From a phage, in assembly GCA_037431425.1 (NCBI GenBank), contig GCA_037431425.1_4129.2: DNA of 64,000 nt, one strand, 5' to 3'. Below the pieces are notes generated by a model, which did no database searches, had not been told where the DNA came from, and was given only the letters and a program-made list of their open reading frames with translations. Below, piece after piece: positions 1 to 44,179 of the stretch. How positions within the stretch are numbered: the stretch's first letter is position 1; every line of letters begins with the position of its first letter. A program made the translations under genes and the position numbers.

Positions 1-2253
1 ACCAGTTACAGTTAAAGTTGACCCAACTAGAACAGATGAGCTTGAGTAAATTGTACCCAAATTAGCAGATCCGGTAACAGTTATATCATCAGCATTAACA
101 GTAGTTGCCGTTATGGTAGTACTATTAAGTACTGGAAGTACGTTAGCATTAACAAGATCATTACTTTTAACAATACCAGAAGTAGTTAATGATTTAACAT
201 TAAGGTTGGCTGCTGATAAATCAAAAGAGCCTTGAACTACTAAATCACCACCTATAGTTGCACCAGCAGTAGTAGTGATTGATTTAGCATTAATATCGGT
301 AGTGCTCAAGTCTAGAGAACCAACAGTTAAGCTACCAGTAATATCAACATTTTCTGTAAAGTTAGTATTACCACTAATAGTTGGTGCAGTCAGAGTTGTT
401 GCACTAATATTAGTACCGTTAATTGTTTGCCCACTTACAGTTCCACTCGCAGTGATAGTAGGAGCCGTTACTTCAGTAGATGCACTAATTGTTGGTGCAG
501 ATACAGAAGTTGTACCAGTAATAGTACCAGAACTTACTGAACCAGCGGATAATGCACCAGAAAGAGTTGCAGTTGTACCAGCAATATCACCAGTAACAGT
601 TAGTTTAGCACCCACGGTAGTGTTACCAGTACTTTCAAGTGTTGCACCTTTAATATTTGCTGCCGCGACAACAGAATTAGGTGTTAGATCTTGACCACTA
701 ACATCAACAGTTAGTCCAGTTACTGTTCCAGTAAATTCAACATCATTAAGAATTGCCTTACCACCAACTGTAAGGTATGGTGTACTTGGGTCTTGAGTAT
801 CGTTACCAGTGATAGTTAGATAATCTAGTTTGTTTAGGCCGTTACCAGTAATACCATAAGAAGATAGTGATGCATTACCAAAGGTAGCAGTTTTAAGTAC
901 TTTCAATGTTGCTGGGGAAACCAACTCAGATTGAACTTCATTAGGTAAAATAACAGTTGGACGTTGATCTTGTGCGGTATATGCAAAACCTAGTTTCACA
1001 GCAGAATCTTGTGAATTTTGACCTAAACTAATAGCTTTAAAAGAAGCAGTACCGTTTAAACCAGTAATATTAGATCCTAGTGTAACACCACCAACTAAAG
1101 AAGACGCACCCTTTATATTTAAAGTGTTTGCATCAATATCATCAAGTTGGAAATCACCACCAAATGTACCGGAAACATTAATATTATTAAAATTAGCAGT
1201 ACCAGTACTTTCAATATCTGGAATGGTTGCTGTTCCAGTAACCTCAAAATCAGCAACTTTAGTTTTACCTTTTGTCACTTCTAGAAGTGGGGTGTCAGGT
1301 GATTGTGTATCGTTACCAGAAACGGTTAGATAATCTAGTTTGTTTAGACCATTACCAGTAATACCATAAGAAGACAATGATGCATTACCAAAAGTAGCAG
1401 AAGTTAAAACTGTCAATTTAGCAGGTGACATTAATTCAGATTGAATTTCATTTTGTAGAATTACTGTTGGACGTTTATCAGGAGCACTGTAAGGGAAGCT
1501 CAATCTGGAGGTTTGTGATTCAGAGTCGGTTCCGATACGGATATCTTTAAATGTAGCAGTGCTATTAATACCAGTTACGTTAGCACCAAAAGTTACCGCA
1601 CCTTTTTGATTAGATGCACCAGTAACATTCAATGTTTCAGCGTTTAAATCAGAAAGATTAAACTCGCCACCTAGTGTACCACTAATATTCACATCTTGAA
1701 ACTCAGCAGTGCCAGTACTACTGATGTCTTTAATTTTTGCAGAATTGGCAGTAATTTTATCAAATGCGGCAGTAGTTCCAGAATACGCAACTAAGTCACC
1801 TTTCATGCTCAAGTTACCTTTTGTACTTAAGTCCCCTTCCACGTTTAATGTACCGTTCATTGTTGCTGTCTCAGCAACTTCCAATTGTTTAACTTTAGTT
1901 GCTTGAAGTGTTGTTTTACCCTCAGATTGAGTGAGATCTGCACCCACCGTAACAGTACCGTTAAATGTGGCGTTTGCATTAATTGTTGCTGTATCAGAAT
2001 CACCATCTTCACTACCGATTGTAGTATTACCTTTAATATCAAGACCACCACTTAGTGTTGCTTTTCCAGCAACATCTAATGTGGATGTAATATTGGCAGT
2101 TTCGGTTTCAATGGCAGTAAAAGTTGCATTTGTGAAAGATATACTACCATTTACAGTTAGGTTATTCTTGAATACAGCATTCCCTTTGACTAAAAGATCC
2201 TTACCAACCGTACCGGAGCCAGTAATATCTAAGTCAGTTTTTATTGAGTACAT
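1..2253 (-). CDS. tail fiber-like repetitive structural protein (N-terminal 751 codons; gene continues past window start)
   Basis: Manual minus-strand translation from ATG at 2253-2251 (MYSIKTDLDITGSGTVGKDL...) has no stop down to position 1; GGAGGG Shine-Dalgarno just upstream; Ser/Thr/Gly/Asn-rich with two long internal repeats. Absent from ORF track because no stop lies inside the window; the plus-strand ORFs 275..2332 are its antisense. Confidence 0.6.
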   Translation of the reverse strand, partial: MYSIKTDLDITGSGTVGKDLLVKGNAVFKNNLTVNGSISFTNATFTAIETETANITSTLDVAGKATLSGGLDIKGNTTIGSEDGDSDTATINANATFNGTVTVGADLTQSEGKTTLQATKVKQLEVAETATMNGTLNVEGDLSTKGNLSMKGDLVAYSGTTAAFDKITANSAKIKDISSTGTAEFQDVNISGTLGGEFNLSDLNAETLNVTGASNQKGAVTFGANVTGINSTATFKDIRIGTDSESQTSRLSFPYSAPDKRPTVILQNEIQSELMSPAKLTVLTSATFGNASLSSYGITGNGLNKLDYLTVSGNDTQSPDTPLLEVTKGKTKVADFEVTGTATIPDIESTGTANFNNINVSGTFGGDFQLDDIDANTLNIKGASSLVGGVTLGSNITGLNGTASFKAISLGQNSQDSAVKLGFAYTAQDQRPTVILPNEVQSELVSPATLKVLKTATFGNASLSSYGITGNGLNKLDYLTITGNDTQDPSTPYLTVGGKAILNDVEFTGTVTGLTVDVSGQDLTPNSVVAAANIKGATLESTGNTTVGAKLTVTGDIAGTTATLSGALSAGSVSSGTITGTTSVSAPTISASTEVTAPTITASGTVSGQTINGTNISATTLTAPTISGNTNFTENVDITGSLTVGSLDLSTTDINAKSITTTAGATIGGDLVVQGSFDLSAANLNVKSLTTSGIVKSNDLVNANVLPVLNSTTITATTVNADDITVTGSANLGTIYSSSSVLVGSTLTVTG
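700..1730 (-). repeat. tandem duplication of two ~510-bp units (~170 aa each) inside the partial fiber gene
   Basis: Near-identical strings recur with 510-bp offset, e.g. aatctagtttgtttag at 821-836 and 1331-1346, followed by ttaccagtaataccataagaaga; protein repeat ...FGNASLSSYGITGNGLNKLDYLT(V/I)(S/T)GNDTQ... appears twice. Unit boundaries are approximate. Confidence 0.6.
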
Positions 2254-37202: not shown

Positions 37203-39350
37203 ATGCTAAACATTACACGTATATCTATGCGAAACTTCTTTTCATTCGGTAATGCACCACAAATTATTGAATTGAATAGTTCTGACATTTCATTAGTACT
37301 GGGTCAAAATAATGATGCAGTTATTGAAGGCGGTGACAGTTCTGGACGACGAAATGGTGTAGGAAAAAGTGCAATTATTCAAGGATTAGTTTTTGGATTA
37401 TTTGGAAAAAGTATTGGGAATGATATTAAAATCCCCAACTTAGTTAATAAAACTAATGGGAAAAATTGCGAAGTTGTGGTGGAGTTTGAAAAAGACGGTG
37501 TGCAATATATTGTTGAGCGTGGGAGAAGTCCCACGTATTTCAATCTTGTTACTTTAGGTAAAGATGACAAAATTGAAGATGAATCAAGGGGTGAAAAGAA
37601 AGACACTCAAGAAGATTTGAATGAAATTCTTGGAATATCCCAATTATTATTTGAACATATTGTAGTACTGAATGCAAACGTTGAACCTTTCTTGGCGTTA
37701 TCCACACAAAAACAACGTGATATGATAGAAGAACTTCTAGGTATAACACAGTTAACAGAAAAAGCCGAAATATTAAAGGAGATGTACAAGGATACTAAAC
37801 GCTTAGCAGAGCAAGAAAAGTTTAAAAATGAAACAGTTGCTGCAAGTAACGAACGTATTCAAAAAAGTATTGAGGTTCTTCAAGAACAGGCAAACCAATT
37901 TGAGATCGATAAAAGTAATAGAGTAGCGAAGTTAAATGAAGAGTTGAATATTTATAAAACTTTCGACTTCAATGAACTCTATAAAGCTGCTGAAGAGAAA
38001 GAGAAAGCTCTTATTCATAACACAAAGCGTAATGAAATAGAACGCCGTGTACAAGATTTAGCTTTAAAATTTGATGCATATGACCGTGAGATTGAATCAT
38101 CCAAACGTGCACTAAAACTAAGCATTGATAAACTAAAAACTATTGATATTAGTGCTGAGTTGGAAAATCATAATGAACTAGAGATATGGAAACAGTTAGA
38201 AGACATTCTTAAAGAGAATAATAACCAAAAACGTTTCAAAGAGCAAAAGCTAAACTCACTAAAAGTTGCATTAAAAGGGTATGAATGTTCAATTAATGCT
38301 GAAATTGACAAATTATCAACCGTTGAAAATAGTAAATGTCCACTTTGTATGTCAGAATTGGAACATAATGAACATACTTCTTCAATTAAAGATAAAATTC
38401 AAAGTACTATTGACGATCTTCAAGCCAAAATTGACAGTTCTTCTTCTGAAATTGAGATTTTACTTAAAGAAATTGAGAGTATTGAGATTTTTGATATGCC
38501 ACCTAAGCCTGTGACATATTATAATACACTTTCAGAAGCACAAATGCATGAACATAAGCTTCAAGAATTGATCAAAAAGAGTGAAGAAGAGCCAATAAAC
38601 ATCTATGCAAATGAACTTATGTCATCATATGATGAACTTAACTCATATGAACTAATGGAAGTTCCAGATACATTAAACAAATATGAAGTTAAAGAGTTGG
38701 AAATGACCGTAAATTCATTATCACAGCAATTAGATCGTGAATTGAAGACTACTAACACATTTATTAGTCAAATTAATACCCTGAAGACTGATTCTTTAGT
38801 ACCAATCGATTATAGTGACTATAATAATCTTGATAAAATGTCAAATCACCAAGATTTCTTGGTTAAATTACTTTTAAACAAGGATTCTTATGTCCGTAAA
38901 CGTATTATTGAGCAAAATATCTCATATTTGAATACACGACTTCAGTACTATATCGATATGTGCGGTTCTGAGCATAATGTTGTGTTTTTGAATGATTTGA
39001 GTGTTGAAATTGAGAAGAGTGGGCAGTACTTTGACTATAAACAGCTTAGTCGTGGTGAGCGTACAAGGGTAAACATCGCATTATCTTGTGCTTTCCGTGA
39101 TACATACGAGTCATTATATCAAAGTATCAATCTAATAGCACTAGATGAAGCTTGTGATGTTGGTCTTGATTCAAGTGGTGTTGTTAAAGTGTGGTCAATC
39201 TTCAATGACATGGCTGCTATCAGAAATAAAAATGTATATATCATCTCACATAGAGAAGAACTAGTTTCTAAGACTGAACATATACTTAAAGTAACCAAAG
39301 AAGATGGTTTTAGTACTATAAGTTACTGTACAATTGATGATATCTATTAA
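37203..39350 (+). CDS. 46: recombination ATPase gp46-like (Rad50/SbcC family)
   Basis: Walker A GRRNGVGKSA near N-terminus; long coiled-coil middle; CPLC zinc hook; C-terminal signature LSRGERTRVNIAL and Walker B LIALDEA. Confidence 0.85.
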   Translation: MLNITRISMRNFFSFGNAPQIIELNSSDISLVLGQNNDAVIEGGDSSGRRNGVGKSAIIQGLVFGLFGKSIGNDIKIPNLVNKTNGKNCEVVVEFEKDGVQYIVERGRSPTYFNLVTLGKDDKIEDESRGEKKDTQEDLNEILGISQLLFEHIVVLNANVEPFLALSTQKQRDMIEELLGITQLTEKAEILKEMYKDTKRLAEQEKFKNETVAASNERIQKSIEVLQEQANQFEIDKSNRVAKLNEELNIYKTFDFNELYKAAEEKEKALIHNTKRNEIERRVQDLALKFDAYDREIESSKRALKLSIDKLKTIDISAELENHNELEIWKQLEDILKENNNQKRFKEQKLNSLKVALKGYECSINAEIDKLSTVENSKCPLCMSELEHNEHTSSIKDKIQSTIDDLQAKIDSSSSEIEILLKEIESIEIFDMPPKPVTYYNTLSEAQMHEHKLQELIKKSEEEPINIYANELMSSYDELNSYELMEVPDTLNKYEVKELEMTVNSLSQQLDRELKTTNTFISQINTLKTDSLVPIDYSDYNNLDKMSNHQDFLVKLLLNKDSYVRKRIIEQNISYLNTRLQYYIDMCGSEHNVVFLNDLSVEIEKSGQYFDYKQLSRGERTRVNIALSCAFRDTYESLYQSINLIALDEACDVGLDSSGVVKVWSIFNDMAAIRNKNVYIISHREELVSKTEHILKVTKEDGFSTISYCTIDDIY

Positions 39351-39357
39351 TAACAGA

Positions 39358-39383
39358 AAAGGGGGCTTATGCTCCCTTTTTTA
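39358..39383. terminator. intrinsic terminator after gp46-like gene
   Basis: GGGGGC-ttat-GCTCCC stem (one G-U pair) followed by TTTTTT; A-run upstream. Confidence 0.6.
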
Positions 39384-39459
39384 TTATCATTATATCTATT
39401 GTTTCCATACATCCTACATCGAACTAGATTTTGTAAGATATAGGATTGGTAATGTGTTT

Positions 39460-39954
39460 TTATTTTGTATCTCTTTTTACATCAACCATGTTTAATTTAC
39501 CGTCCTTAATTAGCTTTCTAGCTTGTTTTACACGAGCAGTAGTGTTGCTACCAGGGACGACACCTAACCCTTCCAGAATTGCGTTTTGCTGCGTTGCTGG
39601 AAGCCTTTTAAACTTATTCACATCTACTGTTAGTGCTGTGTGATGTATCACTTGCTCTTCTAGTGGGATGTTGTTGTTCTTTTCAAGATAATCTGCCAGA
39701 TTTCTTAGTACTTCATGTAAAGGCATATCAGTTAAATGCTTTCCATATCGGTTCCATGCGTTGGAAACTTTACCTTCAAATGCGTTTATTTCATTCTGTA
39801 GAACTTCACGACAGTGTTGGTTACCATAATGGTAGTGATCCAGTACTGGTTTAGTTATTGGTTCCTTAATTATAGGATCAATTCCTTTTTGCTTCTTTAG
39901 TAATTCATTACGATAGTTTGCAGCTTCTTTACTATCTTTTAATCTTTTCTTCAT
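39460..39954 (-). CDS. hypothetical protein
   Basis: 164-aa ORF with GGTGGGGA SD 4 nt before ATG at 39954; no motif recognised. Confidence 0.5.
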   Translation of the reverse strand: MKKRLKDSKEAANYRNELLKKQKGIDPIIKEPITKPVLDHYHYGNQHCREVLQNEINAFEGKVSNAWNRYGKHLTDMPLHEVLRNLADYLEKNNNIPLEEQVIHHTALTVDVNKFKRLPATQQNAILEGLGVVPGSNTTARVKQARKLIKDGKLNMVDVKRDTK

Positions 39955-40046
39955 AAATCCCCACCAAACTAATTTTTATAAAAATATTTATGAGTTACAT
40001 TAGAGAACAATAATTATGTGTTTTTTGATAAATAAATTTAAATTAT

Positions 40047-40076
40047 TTGAGACAACTTTGAAGTTTGTGCTATAAT
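40047..40076 (+). promoter_or_regulatory. sigma70-type promoter TTGAGA-18-TGcTATAAT driving the plus-strand non-coding region
   Basis: -35 TTGAGA 40047-40052, 18-nt spacer, extended -10 TGcTATAAT 40068-40076; no protein-coding gene downstream on this strand. Confidence 0.5.
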
Positions 40077-40082
40077 GTTTGA

Positions 40083-40550
40083 TGTAGTAATGACAATCCT
40101 GTTGAATGCAGAAATGCATATAAATTAGAACCTGATCCTATCGAAAATGTAGATGGCAGATGAGCAGTTCAACAGTGCGATGAGCAGAAGAAACCCGTCA
40201 GAAGTGGGCATAGTTTGAACCCCTCACGGCAATGCGGCTCAATAAAGAACTCCGATAAGCATACAGAGAGTTCCTAGATAGACATATAAGGAATCACACC
40301 TTACCAGATTTGCTAAGGGAGTTTATTAATTGATTTTAATAAACAGCCTGAAGTTTGATTGTATAGACTTTCAGGTGAGTGCTGGGATGAAAAGACCAGT
40401 GACCGTTGCATATGACCGTGATAGGGAGAAACAGAGCAACCCGCTTCCGTTTGTGATTGATCATTTTACAATATAGATCCGTCCAAAATTCACGATACAA
40501 TAAATGCTGAAACCATCAGCGTCAAGAAGAGACTTAATTGTCTCTTTTTT
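40083..40550 (+). ncRNA. candidate structured non-coding RNA of unknown class (~470 nt)
   Basis: Bounded by the promoter above and an intrinsic terminator at 40527-40553; interior ~50% GC versus ~35% background; stops in all frames; local hairpins such as CCTGAA (40347-40352) pairing with TTCAGG (40370-40375). Confidence 0.4.
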
Positions 40551-40553
40551 ATT
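40527..40553 (+). terminator. intrinsic terminator ending the candidate RNA
   Basis: Perfect 7-bp stem AAGAGAC / GTCTCTT with 6-nt loop ttaatt, followed by TTTTTTATT. Confidence 0.7.
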
Positions 40554-40762
40554 ACTTTCATTCCCCTGCGGGGGGATGAAAATGTCCTCAACAAATCCCG
40601 TCAAGTTTTAAATCTTTAAAAGTTCTTTCTAAATTAATTTAATGAAATGAATATGAGTTACGTAGTAACGAATATTCTTCAGGTAACGAATGAAATGAGT
40701 TAGCTGAATCCAATATATTAAAATTAATCTTTCATAATTCAATTCAAATAATTCTGTAGTTT

Positions 40763-40796
40763 AAAAAAACAAAAAAAACCAGCAACAATGTGCTGG
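40763..40796 (-). terminator. intrinsic terminator for the minus-strand operon ending at 40809
   Basis: CCAGCA-acaatg-TGCTGG stem; on the minus strand it is followed by a long U-run (plus-strand A-run 40763-40778). Confidence 0.65.
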
Positions 40797-40808
40797 TAAT
40801 TATGTGAT

Positions 40809-41018
40809 TTAGTGCTTCTCGTTTTGTTTTTTAATTTTCTTATTAAAAGACTTAACTAATAAGTCTCTATCTATTAAAGGCATATTAAGAAGTGTTCCAT
40901 AGTCAATATTATCCATATAAACAGAACACTCCATTAGTGCTTGTTTGATTTCTGACTTATTCAGTTCTATCTCCCTTATGACTTCTTGTATTTCTTCAGG
41001 AGTTGACTGGAGAAGCAT
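40809..41018 (-). CDS. hypothetical small protein (69 aa)
   Basis: TAATG stop/start overlap with upstream gene suggests translational coupling; charged, probably helical. Confidence 0.4.
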   Translation of the reverse strand: MLLQSTPEEIQEVIREIELNKSEIKQALMECSVYMDNIDYGTLLNMPLIDRDLLVKSFNKKIKKQNEKH

Positions 41019-41854
41019 TACTCGAAAAAATGACTAGGATCATATTTTAGTCCATCAATTTCCCATTGATGATTACAGTTACTACATTCAACTTCCATAG
41101 TATGGGAGACACCAATCTCAAGTACTTCATCCATTTTTTCACGAATTAGTTTAAGAACTCCCTTCGATTGTTGACCGAGCCATTCATTAATAAATTCCTT
41201 TTCAACTACTTCATCACCGTCTGGTGTTATAATTTTTGCAATAACTCCACCAATCATATCAAAATTAAGTTGAGCCATACTTTCAAAAACTTCTGAAAAT
41301 ATTTTTACTTTTTCATCCTTGTCAATATCAGCAGTTTCAAGAAACTTGGTTTTTTGTTGTTCGTTGAACATGCGTTCTGCAAAAGATGAATATTCTTTCC
41401 ATGTAAGTGGTTTAAATTCCAAACGTAGACCGTTATCCAAATCAACAGAAGGAATTTCACTAAATGATTTCGCAGTTTCAAGTAGATATGATAGATTACG
41501 CTCAAAGCGTCCCTCTTTTTCACATTCAGGACATACTACGTTAATGTCATATGTTTCTTCTTTCGAAGCAACTTTAATTGCAATAAGAAGCATTTCAACA
41601 TCATTTACATATAGTTCATCTGCATCAATTACATTCGGAACACAGTTCTCAATCACACGTGATACTGCATCACCATTTAGTAGCATATCTGGTGTATTCA
41701 GTGTCATTTCATCACGTGCACTACGTGCACAAACTCCGCACTTGACACCTTTTGGTCCTAGTACTCCATCTTTATAAGGAATAACACCGTTTGTAACCAA
41801 CTTAGTACTGATCTCTTCAATTTTAGTGTACTTAGCAAGTGGATTCATAGCCAT
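41018..41854 (-). CDS. hypothetical Cys-rich protein with three CxxC pairs (possible zinc-binding)
   Basis: CGVC, CPEC and CSNC motifs; start moved to ATG 41854 (MAMNPLAKY..., GGAG ~10 nt upstream); the 35 extra N-terminal codons in the track ORF look like translated AT-rich spacer. Confidence 0.5.
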   Translation of the reverse strand: MAMNPLAKYTKIEEISTKLVTNGVIPYKDGVLGPKGVKCGVCARSARDEMTLNTPDMLLNGDAVSRVIENCVPNVIDADELYVNDVEMLLIAIKVASKEETYDINVVCPECEKEGRFERNLSYLLETAKSFSEIPSVDLDNGLRLEFKPLTWKEYSSFAERMFNEQQKTKFLETADIDKDEKVKIFSEVFESMAQLNFDMIGGVIAKIITPDGDEVVEKEFINEWLGQQSKGVLKLIREKMDEVLEIGVSHTMEVECSNCNHQWEIDGLKYDPSHFFE

Positions 41855-41977
41855 TTTGTTAAATCTCCATGTAATAAATGTGTTTATAGTATTTATAATA
41901 CTAAAATCAAACAATTTTTTTATATTATATATAGTTTCATAAATATTTCTATAATACATCTATTAAAAGGGAATGTT

Positions 41978-44179
41978 ATGGCTGGAAATACAAGTGATTA
42001 CCTACTACAACAGTTGGTTAATCAAACTAAAGATAACAATGATAGCTTGAGTGCTATACGTGAGTTATTGGCTGAAAATATAAAAAATGACAGAAAGAAA
42101 TCCGGTTCTAAAAGTAGAAAACATAACGAAAGAACTTCATCTGGTTCTGGGAATCGTGGTTCTAAAGCTAATAATGTAGATGGTGGTAAAGAATTTGGTA
42201 AAATATTCAAATCATTATCATCTGAAGTATCAAATGTTGGAAAAACAATGATGAGTACATCTGCTAACGTCAGCAACGTTGTCAATTCACTGGGAATGAG
42301 TGCATCTTCATTTGCTGGTTCATTGGCAATGATTCCTGGGCCAGTTGGTGCAGCCGCAACTGCTTTTAAAATGGTCGCTGACGTTGGTATGGCAGTATAT
42401 AATGTATTAAATGCACAACTTGAAGTTTATAATAGAATAAACAGTGCTGGTGTTGCCCTATCTGAAGGATATGGTTCCATATTAAAAGGTGCAGGTGCAT
42501 CAATGATGAGTGTTGATGCATTTGGTGAAGCATTACAAACACATAGTTCTGTTGTTGCACAATTGGATGGAGCATATGGTGATGGTGTATCCACATTTGG
42601 TAAATTATTGGGTACTGTACAACAGGCACAAAATCAATTGGGTTTATATGGAGTTTCACAAAAAACACTAACTGATTTAACTGCACGTAATATTAAATTC
42701 CAAAAGCAATTTGGTGGAAGAGAAATGTTACGTAGTATGGATCAAGCAAAAAGTACTGAACAGTTTATCATGAGCATGACTAAGTTCAGTAAAAGTATGG
42801 GTGAGTCGGTTGATGCACTATTAAATAAAACACAAAACTTAGATAAATCATTAGATACACGTTCAATGCAAATAGCATTACAGAACTATTCTGGGCTATC
42901 AGGTAAAGCAGCAGTCGAAACGTCAAAAGCATTTAACGAAGCTGCTGCGAGTATGGGTGATGCTGGTGCAGATTTCCTACGTTTAATTTCACATCGTTTA
43001 ACCATTGGTGGTGTACCAGATGATTTATTGACTCCAGTACTTAATCAATTTGCTGACTTAGGTGAGAACTTGGTACGTAGTGGTGTTACTGATTCGCAAG
43101 AAATTCGCCGCCAGCAGATAGAATTTGTTAAAAAGAACAAAGAATTAATAAAGCAAGATTTATTACATCAGATTAATTTAGGAAACACTACTGCTGCAAT
43201 CTTCAACCAACAACTACTCGATATGGAAGCTGCGATAAACGATCCTAAGAGTCAACCAGCAGATAAATTAACACAATTCACTGATAGATTCAACAGATGG
43301 ATTAGTAAAGAGTTTACTGGACCATTTAATAAAATGTATGCAGATACACAAAATTCTATTGCGGATTACCTTACTGATATTGCTGATAGTACTGATGGTG
43401 CATGGGAATTCATCGGAAAGTTAGCACTTGATGGTTTTGGTTTGGTTCCTATTGCGAAAGATGCCGTTGTGTATTTGGATAGGATCGGTGGTGAGTTTGA
43501 GCAGTGGTTAGAAGGGTTAGGTACTGAAATTTTTGGTAGTGGATATAATAAAGTTTCAGAAGCATTCAATAGTTTTATGAATAACTTAATGGATTTACCT
43601 GGAAAACTATGGGATTCTGTAAAAGGTTGGTTTGGTGGTTCGAAAGATAAACCAAAAGTTGATAATAATTCAGTCACCGATGGAGTAGAAAAAGTTAATA
43701 GCTACTTCGAAGATAAAATGAATTCATTTGGGGATTATATTTCCAATTCATTTGACCATTTTTTGAAATGGAATTCAAGTAGGAACTTTAAACAACCTAA
43801 ACCACTTGATGGTTCAGTTGCAGAAAAACTTATTGGTACTGGTATTGATAGTAAACCCACAACAACTACTAGAATCGAAAAATCTGAACACGTTGCTCCG
43901 TATGTTACCATTACACCAAAAACTTTTGATAAGTCAGCATGGGGACCGAATGAACCGCCAGTTCAAGCTCAACCGGACGATAATGAGGCTATGAAAGCGA
44001 TGATAAATAATGGTAGTAGTATGGCAAATATTAATAATAATGCCACAATATCAGAAGATATGAAAGAGTTACTTAAAAAACTTGCTGATGTTAACGAGCA
44101 ATCACTATCTGCTGTACAACAGACAAATAACTATCTAAGAACTATCTCTGAAAACACTCAAGGTGAGAGAAACAGTTAA
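41978..44179 (+). CDS. hypothetical Ala/Gly/Ser-rich protein (733 aa), possibly tape-measure-like or internal virion protein
   Basis: Low-complexity Ala/Ser/Gly-rich, predicted helical; ATAAATAT late-type motif upstream; directly precedes portal gene. The tape-measure suggestion rests on composition and position only. Confidence 0.55.
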   Translation: MAGNTSDYLLQQLVNQTKDNNDSLSAIRELLAENIKNDRKKSGSKSRKHNERTSSGSGNRGSKANNVDGGKEFGKIFKSLSSEVSNVGKTMMSTSANVSNVVNSLGMSASSFAGSLAMIPGPVGAAATAFKMVADVGMAVYNVLNAQLEVYNRINSAGVALSEGYGSILKGAGASMMSVDAFGEALQTHSSVVAQLDGAYGDGVSTFGKLLGTVQQAQNQLGLYGVSQKTLTDLTARNIKFQKQFGGREMLRSMDQAKSTEQFIMSMTKFSKSMGESVDALLNKTQNLDKSLDTRSMQIALQNYSGLSGKAAVETSKAFNEAAASMGDAGADFLRLISHRLTIGGVPDDLLTPVLNQFADLGENLVRSGVTDSQEIRRQQIEFVKKNKELIKQDLLHQINLGNTTAAIFNQQLLDMEAAINDPKSQPADKLTQFTDRFNRWISKEFTGPFNKMYADTQNSIADYLTDIADSTDGAWEFIGKLALDGFGLVPIAKDAVVYLDRIGGEFEQWLEGLGTEIFGSGYNKVSEAFNSFMNNLMDLPGKLWDSVKGWFGGSKDKPKVDNNSVTDGVEKVNSYFEDKMNSFGDYISNSFDHFLKWNSSRNFKQPKPLDGSVAEKLIGTGIDSKPTTTTRIEKSEHVAPYVTITPKTFDKSAWGPNEPPVQAQPDDNEAMKAMINNGSSMANINNNATISEDMKELLKKLADVNEQSLSAVQQTNNYLRTISENTQGERNS

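Follow-up and report, generated by a model that had tools for sequence, protein, structure and literature searches.

What does the longest gene-free stretch of this phage DNA encode? In the window, by which we mean the whole 64,000-nt stretch that was analysed, positions 39955-40808 form the longest segment lacking an ORF of at least 60 aa on either strand (854 bp, the runner-up measuring 429 bp). It is flanked by two minus-strand neighbours, an EndoVII-like gene (39460-39954) and a 69-aa ORF (40809-41018). Public records leave the region unannotated or call it hypothetical proteins; the GenBank records of some phages (ph0011, JP4, E9.1) annotate one to four of these at the locus. The original prediction, made by reading the sequence without database searches, held that this was the sole long ORF-less gap, that both neighbours were on the minus strand, and that the plus strand encoded an orphan structured RNA between a sigma70-type promoter and an intrinsic terminator. 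The claims on the gap and on its neighbours held. Two descriptive claims failed: the interior, put at about 50% GC, measured 41.5% for 40140-40520 and reached 48-49% only as a 100-nt window peak (whole window, 34.7%), and the micro-ORFs were not limited to two of 21 and 29 aa, as several others were found, including a 48-aa TTG-start ORF (40330-40476) and minus-strand ORFs of 47-54 aa, none of them conserved.

The locus is a gene for a large non-coding RNA

Comparison of the homologous copies argued against a protein product. Only 15% of the indels in the family were multiples of three, the longest ORF shifted strand and location between copies, and no ORF was kept in place, strand or frame. 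A search among the homologues for a conserved small ORF on either strand found none.

Evidence for a folded product came from covariation. RNAalifold returned 76 pairs with compensatory changes at 51. A 91-pair model (17 helices including three pseudoknot pairings), scored on an unfitted 32-sequence alignment, was 94.8% paired compared with 38-43% in shifted controls, and both-sided (compensatory) changes were observed at 67 pairs. Its covariation score of 0.487 was to be set against at most 0.093 in slid controls, and was reached by none of 500 shuffles. The pseudoknot PK1 formed a 5-9 bp duplex in all 32 sequences, in at least eight sequence variants, with changes on both sides at 5 of the 6 scored column pairs. 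PK3 covaried at 7/7 pairs (99.1% of cells paired). PK2 was 100% paired, one pair changing from G-C to A-U in four sequences while the remaining pairs were invariant; its support is weaker than that of the covarying pseudoknots, and PK2 and the 3' hairpin rest mainly on invariant pairs. Two other pairings, GGGAG (40317-40321) with CUUCC and CGUGA with UCACG (40224-40228), were rejected, as local alternatives covary and these do not. The covariation shows a large folded RNA of at least 17 helices bound by three pseudoknots, one of which locks the 5' end into a hairpin loop. The coordinates of the features are collected in Table 1.

Table 1. Features of the RNA locus, in window coordinates
Feature	Position	Strand	Description
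sigma70 promoter	40047-40076	+	-35 TTGAGA/GAGACA, 18-nt spacer, extended -10 TGCTATAAT
Structured RNA core	40084-40523	+	13 nested helices (H2-H9, H4b, Hb, Hc, Hd and one more) and 3 pseudoknot helices
Pseudoknot PK1	40099-40106 x 40168-40175	+	5' strand CUGUUGAA with UUCAACAG in the loop of hairpin H3 (40164-40178)
Pseudoknot PK3	40358-40364 x 40495-40501	+	AUUGUAU in the loop of hairpin H8 (40346-40376) with AUACAAU
Pseudoknot PK2	40405-40409 x 40436-40440	+	GUUGC with GCAAC, within the 15-nt loop of helix Hb (40424-40448)
Intrinsic terminator	40524-40550	+	AAGAAGAGAC-UUAAUU-GUCUCUUUUUU; terminator scan, 10 pairs and T run
Conserved 3' hairpin and tail	40557-40605	+	UUCAUUCCCC-UGC-GGGGGGAUGAA, tail CAAAUCCCGUCAAG; sequence conservation
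3' module, hairpin X	40649-40679	+	Closed by GAAUAU/AUAUUC, apical hairpin 40658-40668; single-sequence folds
3' module, hairpin Y	40680-40706	+	Compensatory changes at 5/5 pairs

About a quarter of the nucleotides (124/533) were invariant and many more nearly so, many of them in loops and junctions; the unpaired invariant blocks of the core include CGAAAAUGUAG, AGAUGAG, GCUAAGGGAG, GACCGUUGC, GAGAAACAGAGCAACCCGCUU and CAGCGUCAAG. Folding energy alone could not decide the strand, because the minus strand (z = -3.3) also folds better than shuffles, as does the plus strand (z = -4.2). G-U pairs were common, occurring at several pairs, and A-C pairs rare, which argues for selection on the plus-strand transcript.

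The locus encodes a large non-coding RNA and is neither protein-coding nor a UTR or intron; that it is expressed is an inference. The original reading, a promoter-driven structured non-coding RNA of undescribed class on the plus strand, held and now rests on covariation, expression again being inferred. Two results that would have refuted it, a lack of covariation among homologues and a conserved small ORF, were looked for in the sequences: covariation is present and no such ORF was seen.

Promoter, terminator and extent of the transcript

The TTGAGA-18-TATAAT element with its TG extension was the top sigma70-like site in 38000-43000, with 11 of 12 positions matched. The number of promoter-like sites in this interval was no greater than chance (23 observed, 25.9 expected). 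TGnTATAAT with a GACA-type (xxGACA) -35 was present at the equivalent place in nearly all homologues having upstream sequence, and because of this recurrence we judge the window promoter to be real. The scan and the homologues together bore out the original call of a near-consensus promoter at 40047-40076. Transcription would start at about 40083-40084. No expression data exist for any member of the family, and the start, the RNA 3' ends and the stability of the RNA are inferred from sequence alone.

The clean intrinsic terminator first placed at 40527-40553 was also confirmed, with a small shift: the scan put it at 40524-40549, and the feature in Table 1 runs to 40550. Its stem covaries at 5/6 pairs and a U run follows the stem in most phage copies, while the terminator is missing in D-type, RaK2-type and island copies. 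Termination at 40550 would yield a short form of about 470 nt. Conservation extends beyond the terminator, to about 40706; the claim of a promoter-to-terminator unit of about 470 nt was therefore only partly right, the conserved structured unit overrunning its terminator. Read-through is predicted to give a long form of about 625 nt, the sole form containing the 3' module.

Downstream of the terminator, GGGGGGAU and CAAAxxxCGUCA were invariant or near-invariant in 32/32 sequences, terminator-less copies included. In the RaK2 lineage, the CGUCA motif of the 3' tail and the one at 40517-40526 are altered in parallel. Folds with the two hairpins X and Y were predicted independently in 15 diverged homologues with differing stem sequences. 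From the 3' module aligned with MAFFT, RNAalifold recovered hairpin Y alone, so hairpin X rests on the single-sequence folds.

The RNA belongs to a family in Rak2-like jumbo phages

The description of the locus as an orphan failed: it is one of four paralogues, with family members in bacterial islands and some 70 Rak2-like jumbo phages. Among sequenced phages the nearest to the window, at 99% identity, is the Asteriusvirus ph0011; it carries four diverged paralogues, each with its own promoter, as detected by blastn, nhmmer and a covariance model; they are dispersed and lie in the same orientation. Across the Rak2-like jumbo phages (70-73 records), 3-5 copies were found in each. Paralogues within one phage are 68-74% identical, and PK1 and PK3 have private sequences that differ among paralogues A/B, C and D. 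The copy beside EndoVII is kept in Asteriusvirus, Eneladusvirus and Mimasvirus, and in ph0011 and RaK2 alike a copy follows the sigma-factor gene; plus-strand genes come after copies B, C and D. The hosts of these phages are E. coli, Klebsiella, Salmonella, Serratia, Yersinia and Erwinia, and the phages are under development for therapy and biocontrol.

A covariance model, R1, was built from 23 homologues, the window copy among them. It matched the window at 40345-40527 (137.6 bits, E 1.6e-28, a score to be read with the training set in mind), picked up four copies, no more and no fewer, in ph0011 as well as an E. coli island copy outside the training set (145 bits), and gave no further matches at E up to 1 within the 470 kb searched. 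The window copy has the R1-type core fold (H8, H9, Hc, Hb, Hd) with the invariant blocks GACCGUUGC and GAAACAGAGCAACCCGC, all three pseudoknots and its own TGnTATAAT promoter. PA5oct provides the sole RNA-seq on a related jumbo phage, in which ncRNAs were detected; the two compared here, ncRNA001 and ncRNA002, showed no homology to the window RNA by maximum-sensitivity nhmmer or the covariance model (15 kb examined).

Single copies reside in chromosomal islands

Full-length RNA was also found, as single copies, in chromosomes of Serratia, Citrobacter, Enterobacter, Silvania and E. coli. The setting is low-GC integrase/cI-like islands of 6-10 kb, where RNA and repressor gene are convergent; in E. 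coli LR-29-1 the island lies beside ffs. Among the island proteins none for replication or packaging was seen, and no known defence system was identified in PADLOC and PHROGs scans. Islands and phage have no proteins in common except one DUF4326 protein, in the E. coli island. At 72-80% identity, the island RNAs are nearer to the copies that adjoin EndoVII in three different phage lineages than paralogues of one phage are to each other.

In the islands, the RNA promoter is overlaid, from its -35 region through the spacer, by a 20-bp operator-like palindrome. This palindrome was not found verbatim in the island repressor/Ner switch region, where only half-sites were present. A search of the phage database with the island-type RNA, for temperate carriers, returned only the same Rak2-like jumbo phages, and the RNA was absent from 72,556 PLSDB plasmids at blastn sensitivity. 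Both the mobility of the islands and their link to Rak2-like phages are inferred from sequence alone, and no experimental data support satellite behaviour.

Known RNA classes do not account for the locus

Rfam 15 gave no relevant match, either in a gathering scan of the whole window or at E up to 10 for 39900-40900 and five diverged homologues. For eight island loci scanned at gathering thresholds, the only returns were a TPP riboswitch and STnc450, both elsewhere in the loci. Of the two likenesses first noted by eye, one to RNase P RNA and one to the S element of group I introns, neither held: no Rfam model was matched at E<=10 in the six copies. For RNase P RNA, there was no RNaseP_bact_a/b-type match in the window, nor at E up to 10 at the locus or in the five homologues. 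A group I intron was rejected on the absence of an Rfam match and on the copies themselves, which are all intergenic, have their own promoter and no exons, and lie between flanks that vary by copy. Likewise, a tmRNA or tRNA-like molecule is not supported, as ARAGORN detected no tRNA or tmRNA in the window, Rfam no tmRNA, and no ORF is conserved. GOLLD, ROOL, HEARO, OLE and raiA had no Rfam 15 covariance-model match in the window copy or the five diverged homologues. A ColE1-type replicon found no support in the blastn-level plasmid search described above or in Rfam, where no RNAI was matched. A hammerhead reading of CAGAUGAG-stem-CGAA was rejected on inspection, as hammerhead-invariant positions vary. 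The RNA was not described in the full texts searched; a list of 10,006 candidate viral RNAs, for the most part short (PMC10690425), could hold fragments of it.

A trans-acting folded RNA is the favoured reading

The reading that we favour, although it could as well prove wrong as right, is that the RNA is a trans-acting folded machine working with a phage-specific partner; it is an inference from the comparisons above. RNAs this large and complex, such as RNase P, group I and II introns, tmRNA, GOLLD, ROOL and OLE, act as folded molecules, and GOLLD and ROOL are phage-associated (PMC12286853). In such a scheme, host RNA polymerase would transcribe all copies from the onset of infection. The majority of transcripts would stop at 40550, yielding a particle of about 470 nt that is compact and resists nucleases; read-through would append the structured 3' module to give about 625 nt. 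The invariant unpaired nucleotides would make up a surface that docks a partner or is itself active. The partner is presumed to be phage-specific rather than a general host factor, because the only other carriers are islands otherwise unlike the phages, whose RNA copies track different phage lineages. The machine could be an RNP scaffold, a ribozyme or a self-assembling particle acting in an early step of jumbo-phage infection, and the repressor-controlled copy of the islands may tap or jam that step. Several observations weigh against this reading. Four diverged copies at long-fixed, dispersed positions are not obviously needed by a trans-acting RNA, nor is conservation 3' of its own terminator, and both would better fit a cis-acting element. 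Moreover, no partner protein has been identified, and neither a catalytic core nor a protein-binding motif of a known kind could be recognised.

The main rival, which remains possible, is a transcript-dependent cis-acting signal for replication start or for its hijacking. The sigma70 transcript, shaped by its folded core, would stay on or return to its template in the conserved 3' region, at the G6 run 40567-40572 and the CGUCA tail, and would prime or license phage DNA synthesis; an island with one copy would be amplified by the phage replisome and headful-packaged like minimalist T4-like satellites. Such a signal would have its analogues in ColE1 RNA II and in the R-loops of T4 oriF and oriG. 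Of the roughly five origins in T4, two are transcript-primed, and satellites of jumbo and T4-like phages exist (PMC12595487, PMC10803314). In favour of this view are the 4-5 dispersed same-orientation copies with positions kept across genera, the sequence conservation beyond the terminator, and the fact that, the DUF4326 exception aside, the locus is the sole thing common to the phages and to islands lacking replication and packaging genes. The island copies follow different phage lineages, the palindrome on their RNA promoter would license firing only upon induction, and absence from plasmids would be expected if the phage replisome were required. Against it, no origin transcript is known to have three pseudoknots and a comparable number of invariant loop nucleotides; a canonical terminator lies upstream of the proposed hybrid region in most phage copies and would release the RNA; the 3' module has RNA-type compensatory changes and not DNA conservation alone; and the cumulative GC skew of ph0011 follows gene orientation only, with no independent origin signal. 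The mobility of the islands and their phage link, on which this rival leans, are themselves only inferred.

A protein-free, self-assembling 'ornate' RNA, or a ribozyme with a host target, as proposed for the GOLLD/ROOL nanocages, appears unlikely. PK1 and PK3 would then be intermolecular kissing contacts, their private sequences allowing each paralogue to assemble only with itself. Covariation is blind to the difference between intramolecular and homomeric intermolecular pairing, these pseudoknots do differ among A/B, C and D, the fold is stabler than shuffles, and size, phage association and unknown function are as in GOLLD and ROOL (PMC12286853). However, there is no homology to the GOLLD, ROOL, OLE or raiA models, and a host-directed role predicts neither lineage-tracking island copies nor restriction to one phage clade. 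Even less likely is a cis-regulatory leader or processive antiterminator, like the HK022 put RNA, for downstream genes. The layout of promoter, structured RNA and terminator and the plus-strand genes after copies B, C and D would suit it, but at the window copy, as at the orthologous copies of other genera, the gene ahead is convergent and on the minus strand, with nothing downstream to express, the island RNA converges on the repressor gene, and 470-625 nt with three pseudoknots far exceeds known leaders. Small protein genes on either strand, or a decayed known RNA (RNase P, group I/II intron, tmRNA), are all but excluded on the sequence evidence. Their support is limited to the hypothetical proteins of some GenBank records and to GACCAGUG...ACAGAGCAACCCGC, which we take to be locally like the RNase P P7-P9 region of E. 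coli M1. They are countered by the absence of an ORF conserved in place, strand or frame, by the 85% of indels that are not multiples of three, by the Rfam and ARAGORN results, and by copies having their own promoters and no exons.

Whatever its mechanism, the RNA is likely to be a new functional RNA of about 470-630 nt that links Rak2-like phages to islands, without a match in the families and literature searched. A conservative reading would make it a new class inside the loose 'ornate' group of phage RNAs. We class it as a wholly new kind, since no relative could be detected and none of the known functional kinds accommodates it. A bolder reading, which is no more than possible, is that the folded transcript serves Rak2-like phages and the minimalist islands alike as the recognition element for replication or propagation, an origin or hijack signal defined by RNA structure, or that it is a new ribozyme or RNP central to the jumbo-phage cycle and copied by the islands to parasitise or block the phage. 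If true, either would add a functional class of large RNA, and for the first time an RNA would be seen to act as 'currency' between a virulent phage and its hitch-hikers. Non-coding RNAs that are both large and highly structured are uncommon, and almost every class of known function is fundamental (catalysis, translation, RNA processing). Here the covariation support is very strong, the hosts are well known and the phages are in development for therapeutic and biocontrol use; with four paralogues to work on, and the RNA also carried by repressor-controlled islands within the E. coli group, function can be approached directly in a tractable host. Jumbo phages may have a connection to small genomic islands that has gone unseen.

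Comparison with known systems

GOLLD and ROOL resemble the window RNA in being pseudoknotted phage non-coding RNAs of several hundred nucleotides, with many conserved unpaired nucleotides and unknown function, discovered by comparative analysis and not by genetics. They differ in that the window RNA has no sequence or structure homology to them (no Rfam match). Whereas they occur in Lactobacillales, rumen or lake phages, it is found in virulent Enterobacterales jumbo phages as 3-5 old paralogues per genome with their own promoters, and also in small chromosomal islands; it is not beside tRNA genes (ARAGORN, window). With RNase P RNA it shares size, long-range pseudoknots and the short P7-P9-like stretch, but it fails the covariance models, is multi-copy, apparently lacks the CR-I/CR-V P4 core, and has paralogues far more diverged than expected of an essential ribozyme.

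ColE1 RNA II and the T4 origins oriF and oriG are similar in having a host-polymerase transcript of about 500 nt with a strong promoter and a G-rich segment near its 3' end. As with RNA II, folding would decide the priming of DNA synthesis, and as in T4 there are several sites per genome. Origin activity is hypothetical here, and the window RNA has no homology to these transcripts, was found on no plasmid, and has a far more elaborate fold and an internal terminator. The phi29 pRNA is likewise a phage-encoded structured RNA with covarying loop-loop pseudoknots, and works with phage proteins; it is, however, a single-copy RNA of 174 nt, in contrast to the multi-copy RNA of 470-625 nt described here, which has no similarity to it, an early host-type promoter and no evidence of a packaging link. 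Satellite/helper cis signals (P4/P2 cos, PICI pac/cos, PICMI) are short DNA sites, unlike a transcribed structured RNA gene, and satellite behaviour of the islands is unproven; what they have in common with the present locus is that a non-coding element is the sole link between a virulent clade and integrase islands.

Covariation supports a pseudoknotted plus-strand RNA

Selection at the locus acts on a plus-strand RNA whose fold is elaborate and pseudoknotted. About 150 loci came from pattern scans of IMG/VR, JGI metagenomes and GTDB genomes; from these, nhmmer extraction gave 75 distinct full-length instances, or 47 clusters at 92% identity. On A1, a MAFFT alignment of 32 sequences that was not fitted to any structure, RNAalifold predicted 76 pairs, and compensatory changes occur at 51; a covariation-supported structure is thus present. 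Three pseudoknots were added by an all-against-all column scan and by duplex searches in each sequence. The full 91-pair model was tallied on A1, with partners slid by 1-3 columns as controls: 94.8% of cells were paired in the model versus 38-43% in the controls, 67 of the 91 pairs had changed on both sides versus 18-31, and the covariation score was 0.487 versus at most 0.093. None of 500 shuffles attained the observed value. Since G-U pairs are frequent in the model and A-C pairs rare, the plus strand is the one under selection. The weakest parts are PK2 and the 3' C4/G4 hairpin, supported mostly by invariant pairs; in the window copy, the register of helix H8 differs by one bulge. Relative to shuffles, folding is better by 4.2 SD on the plus strand and by 3.3 SD on the minus strand; folding energy by itself settles nothing.

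Features of the RNA locus and positions of its copies in Escherichia phage ph0011
Feature	Position	Strand	Remarks
Sigma70-like promoter	40047-40076	+	top site in 5-kb scan; 11/12 plus TG extension
Intrinsic terminator	40524-40549	+	found by scan
Hairpin and tail	40557-40605	+	invariant GGGGGGAU, then CAAAUCYCGUCA; kept in paralogues and orthologues
3' module	40649-40706	+	two hairpins (X, Y); same fold in 15 diverged homologues, stem sequences differing
Strong intrinsic terminator	40778-40797	-	ACCAGCACAUUGUUGCUGGU plus U run; ends 69-aa gene 40809-41018
PK1	40099-40106 (5' strand)	+	partner is loop of hairpin H3
PK2		+	GUUGC with GCAAC
PK3	40495-40501	+	with loop of H8
Copy A	ph0011, 198.5 kb		the window copy
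Copy B	ph0011, 314.8 kb		behind sigma-factor gene; ~90-94% identity to A
Copy C	ph0011, 116.2 kb
Copy D	ph0011, 61.2 kb

An insertion-like hairpin module, ~35 nt long (loop UACAAUAUAG, then CCGUCCAAAAUU; window 40458-40487; A1 columns ~365-405 and ~545-585), appears to be movable: the window copy carries it at the apex of helix Hd, the D-type, GAP32 and Serratia BF copies at that of H7, and ph0011 copy C at both. The junction CAG-AUGA-[H3]-GA-UGAGC (40159-40181) has the potential for tandem G-A/A-G pairs, k-turn- or loop E-like, and a GAG/CGA internal loop in hairpin X is similar to it. A hammerhead core at this junction was rejected as a superficial likeness, the invariant hammerhead positions failing.

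Extent and coding potential of the locus

The source phage belongs to the genus Asteriusvirus, among the Rak2-like jumbo myoviruses; window 1875-64000 and positions 160368-222486 of ph0011 (OP557969.1) align with 99.2% identity, and in that record the RNA locus occupies 198443-199293. The original prediction of a long ORF-free gap held: 39955-40808 (854 bp) is the longest span in the window without an ORF of at least 60 aa on either strand (runner-up, 429 bp). The promoter and terminator proposed within it were both recovered by scans. An interior GC content of about 50% held in part; the enrichment is real, but 40140-40520 has 41.5%, versus 34.7% window-wide. The gap lies between a minus-strand endonuclease VII (EndoVII) gene and minus-strand baseplate-region genes. 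The RNA unit takes up nearly all of the gap, and an AT-rich spacer fills the remainder up to the neighbour's minus-strand terminator. This terminator, the right-hand boundary of the spacer, is kept in Munch, Serratia BF and GAP32.

The proposed promoter-to-terminator extent also held only in part. The terminator is real, its stem covaries, and it is missing from D-type, RaK2-type and island copies; but conservation among paralogues and orthologues passes through it into the following hairpin and the 3' module, so that the conserved unit extends to about 40706. All 5 pairs of hairpin Y show compensatory changes. Given a terminator with conserved sequence 3' of it, we infer two forms, a short one of ~470 nt and one of ~625 nt made by read-through, without experimental data on ends, start or abundance.

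Three YCGUCA(A)G motifs were observed (40195-40201, 40517-40526 and 40592-40605). The RaK2 lineage shows parallel changes in the last two, from C...G to G...U (40517/40521, 40597/40600), possibly because a single binding site is present twice or because two tertiary contacts are equivalent.

No conserved reading frame was found in the RNA region, the longest ORF shifting strand and place among copies, and pairwise indels come in multiples of three in just 15% of cases. These observations, sequence evidence only, speak against the translated small proteins that would have refuted the original prediction. For the same reasons, the one to four "hypothetical proteins" annotated in GenBank over 40330-40620 (ph0011 record 198818-199108), and similar calls at equivalent regions of JP4, E9.1, SHEFM2K and SD-phages, are probably spurious.

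A multi-copy family in Rak2-like phages

The RNA had been taken for an orphan, which failed: blastn against 50,697 phage records found the region in 70-73, at 3-5 places per genome. All are Rak2-like jumbo phages (hosts Escherichia, Klebsiella, Salmonella, Erwinia, Yersinia, Serratia, Cronobacter, Pectobacterium and Xanthomonas), and this database search found none in other phages. The ph0011 genome, joined from seven 50-kb pieces before the copy search, has four copies in identical orientation; a covariance model of the 3' core (E-values rough) found exactly these four, and exactly one in the window. The RNA carries a conserved promoter of its own, and most phage copies also include a terminator. 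Every ph0011 copy is preceded by TGnTATAAT with a GACA-type -35, as is almost every one of the 75 distinct instances that has upstream sequence. Copy positions are retained across genera: in Serratia phage BF and Cronobacter phage GAP32 the A-type copy adjoins EndoVII, and in RaK2 the B-type copy lies behind the sigma-factor gene.

Across the whole window, no Rfam 15 family reached its gathering score. With hits allowed up to E 10, the window copy and five diverged homologues matched no RNase P, group I or II intron, tmRNA, GOLLD, ROOL, HEARO or other relevant model, so the suggested likenesses to RNase P and group I introns failed. ARAGORN found no tRNA or tmRNA, and the full-text literature searched held no description of the family. 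Two ncRNAs that RNA-seq had revealed in the related phage PA5oct (PMC7318152), ncRNA001 and ncRNA002, were rejected as homologues; the family is therefore still without expression evidence.

Single copies in small bacterial islands

Outside Rak2-like phages, the RNA is common only to small islands. Unexpectedly, the GTDB scan found it full-length in chromosomes of Serratia fonticola, Serratia sp., Citrobacter amalonaticus, Enterobacter chinensis, Silvania hatchlandensis and several MAGs; 2 of 5,426 complete E. coli genomes carry it, and it was absent from 72,556 plasmids searched. The islands that hold these copies (bacterial and metagenomic loci L137, L138, L144, L146, L147, L152, L085 and L153) are low in GC, measure roughly 6-10 kb and have a fixed gene order: integrase (large serine recombinase of ~550 aa or tyrosine integrase of ~399 aa), RNA, a convergent cI-like HTH/S24 repressor, a Ner-like protein (87 aa), a membrane protein (286 aa), an LprI-like protein and a small resolvase. 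The insertion site differs with integrase type; in E. coli LR-29-1 the island lies between ffs and ybaA, the RNA unannotated.

In the commonest type, a 20-bp palindrome, TAATGATAAGAGCGTCATTA, spans -39 to -20 of the RNA promoter (for example, L138 4532-4551), overlapping the -35 region and spacer. TAATGA half-sites recur in the repressor/Ner intergenic region, and the palindrome is likely, by inference from its sequence, to be an operator. Because no replication, packaging or known defence genes were found in the mini-islands (PADLOC models gave no match), they could be minimalist satellites of Rak2-like phages, mobility and phage interaction being inferred; satellites of jumbo and T4-like phages have precedents (PMC12595487, PMC10803314). 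One DUF4326 protein is all that ph0011 and island proteins have in common. The nearest relatives of the island RNAs are the copies beside EndoVII in three different phage lineages; their identity of 72-80% exceeds the 68-74% between paralogues of a single phage, from which we infer repeated exchange or long co-divergence with the phages.

Possible functions

We infer that host polymerase would transcribe the RNA early in infection, as two isoforms, and that it would act with a phage-specific partner, because the island copies follow phage lineages and islands and phages share nothing else. We rank first a trans-acting folded machine (RNP scaffold, ribozyme or assembly), although we would not be surprised to see it fail. 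Every known RNA of such complexity does its work in folded form, and the terminator points to a discrete product.

A transcript-dependent origin or hijack signal, the main rival, falls somewhat behind. It better explains the dispersed copies held at fixed positions, the conservation past the terminator, the operator-controlled copy in islands without replication genes and the absence from plasmids, but has no precedent with so ornate a fold. Readings as a leader or antiterminator, as protein-coding sequence or as a decayed known RNA are weak or refuted.

Other features of the window

The sole break in the alignment with ph0011 (window 1729-1874 versus ph0011 160261-160367) is a replaced tail-fibre gene segment of ~146 nt. 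In the region of the long tail-fibre gene, a 177-nt direct repeat (793-969 and 1303-1479; 82% identity, 510 nt apart) is likely an internal protein repeat.
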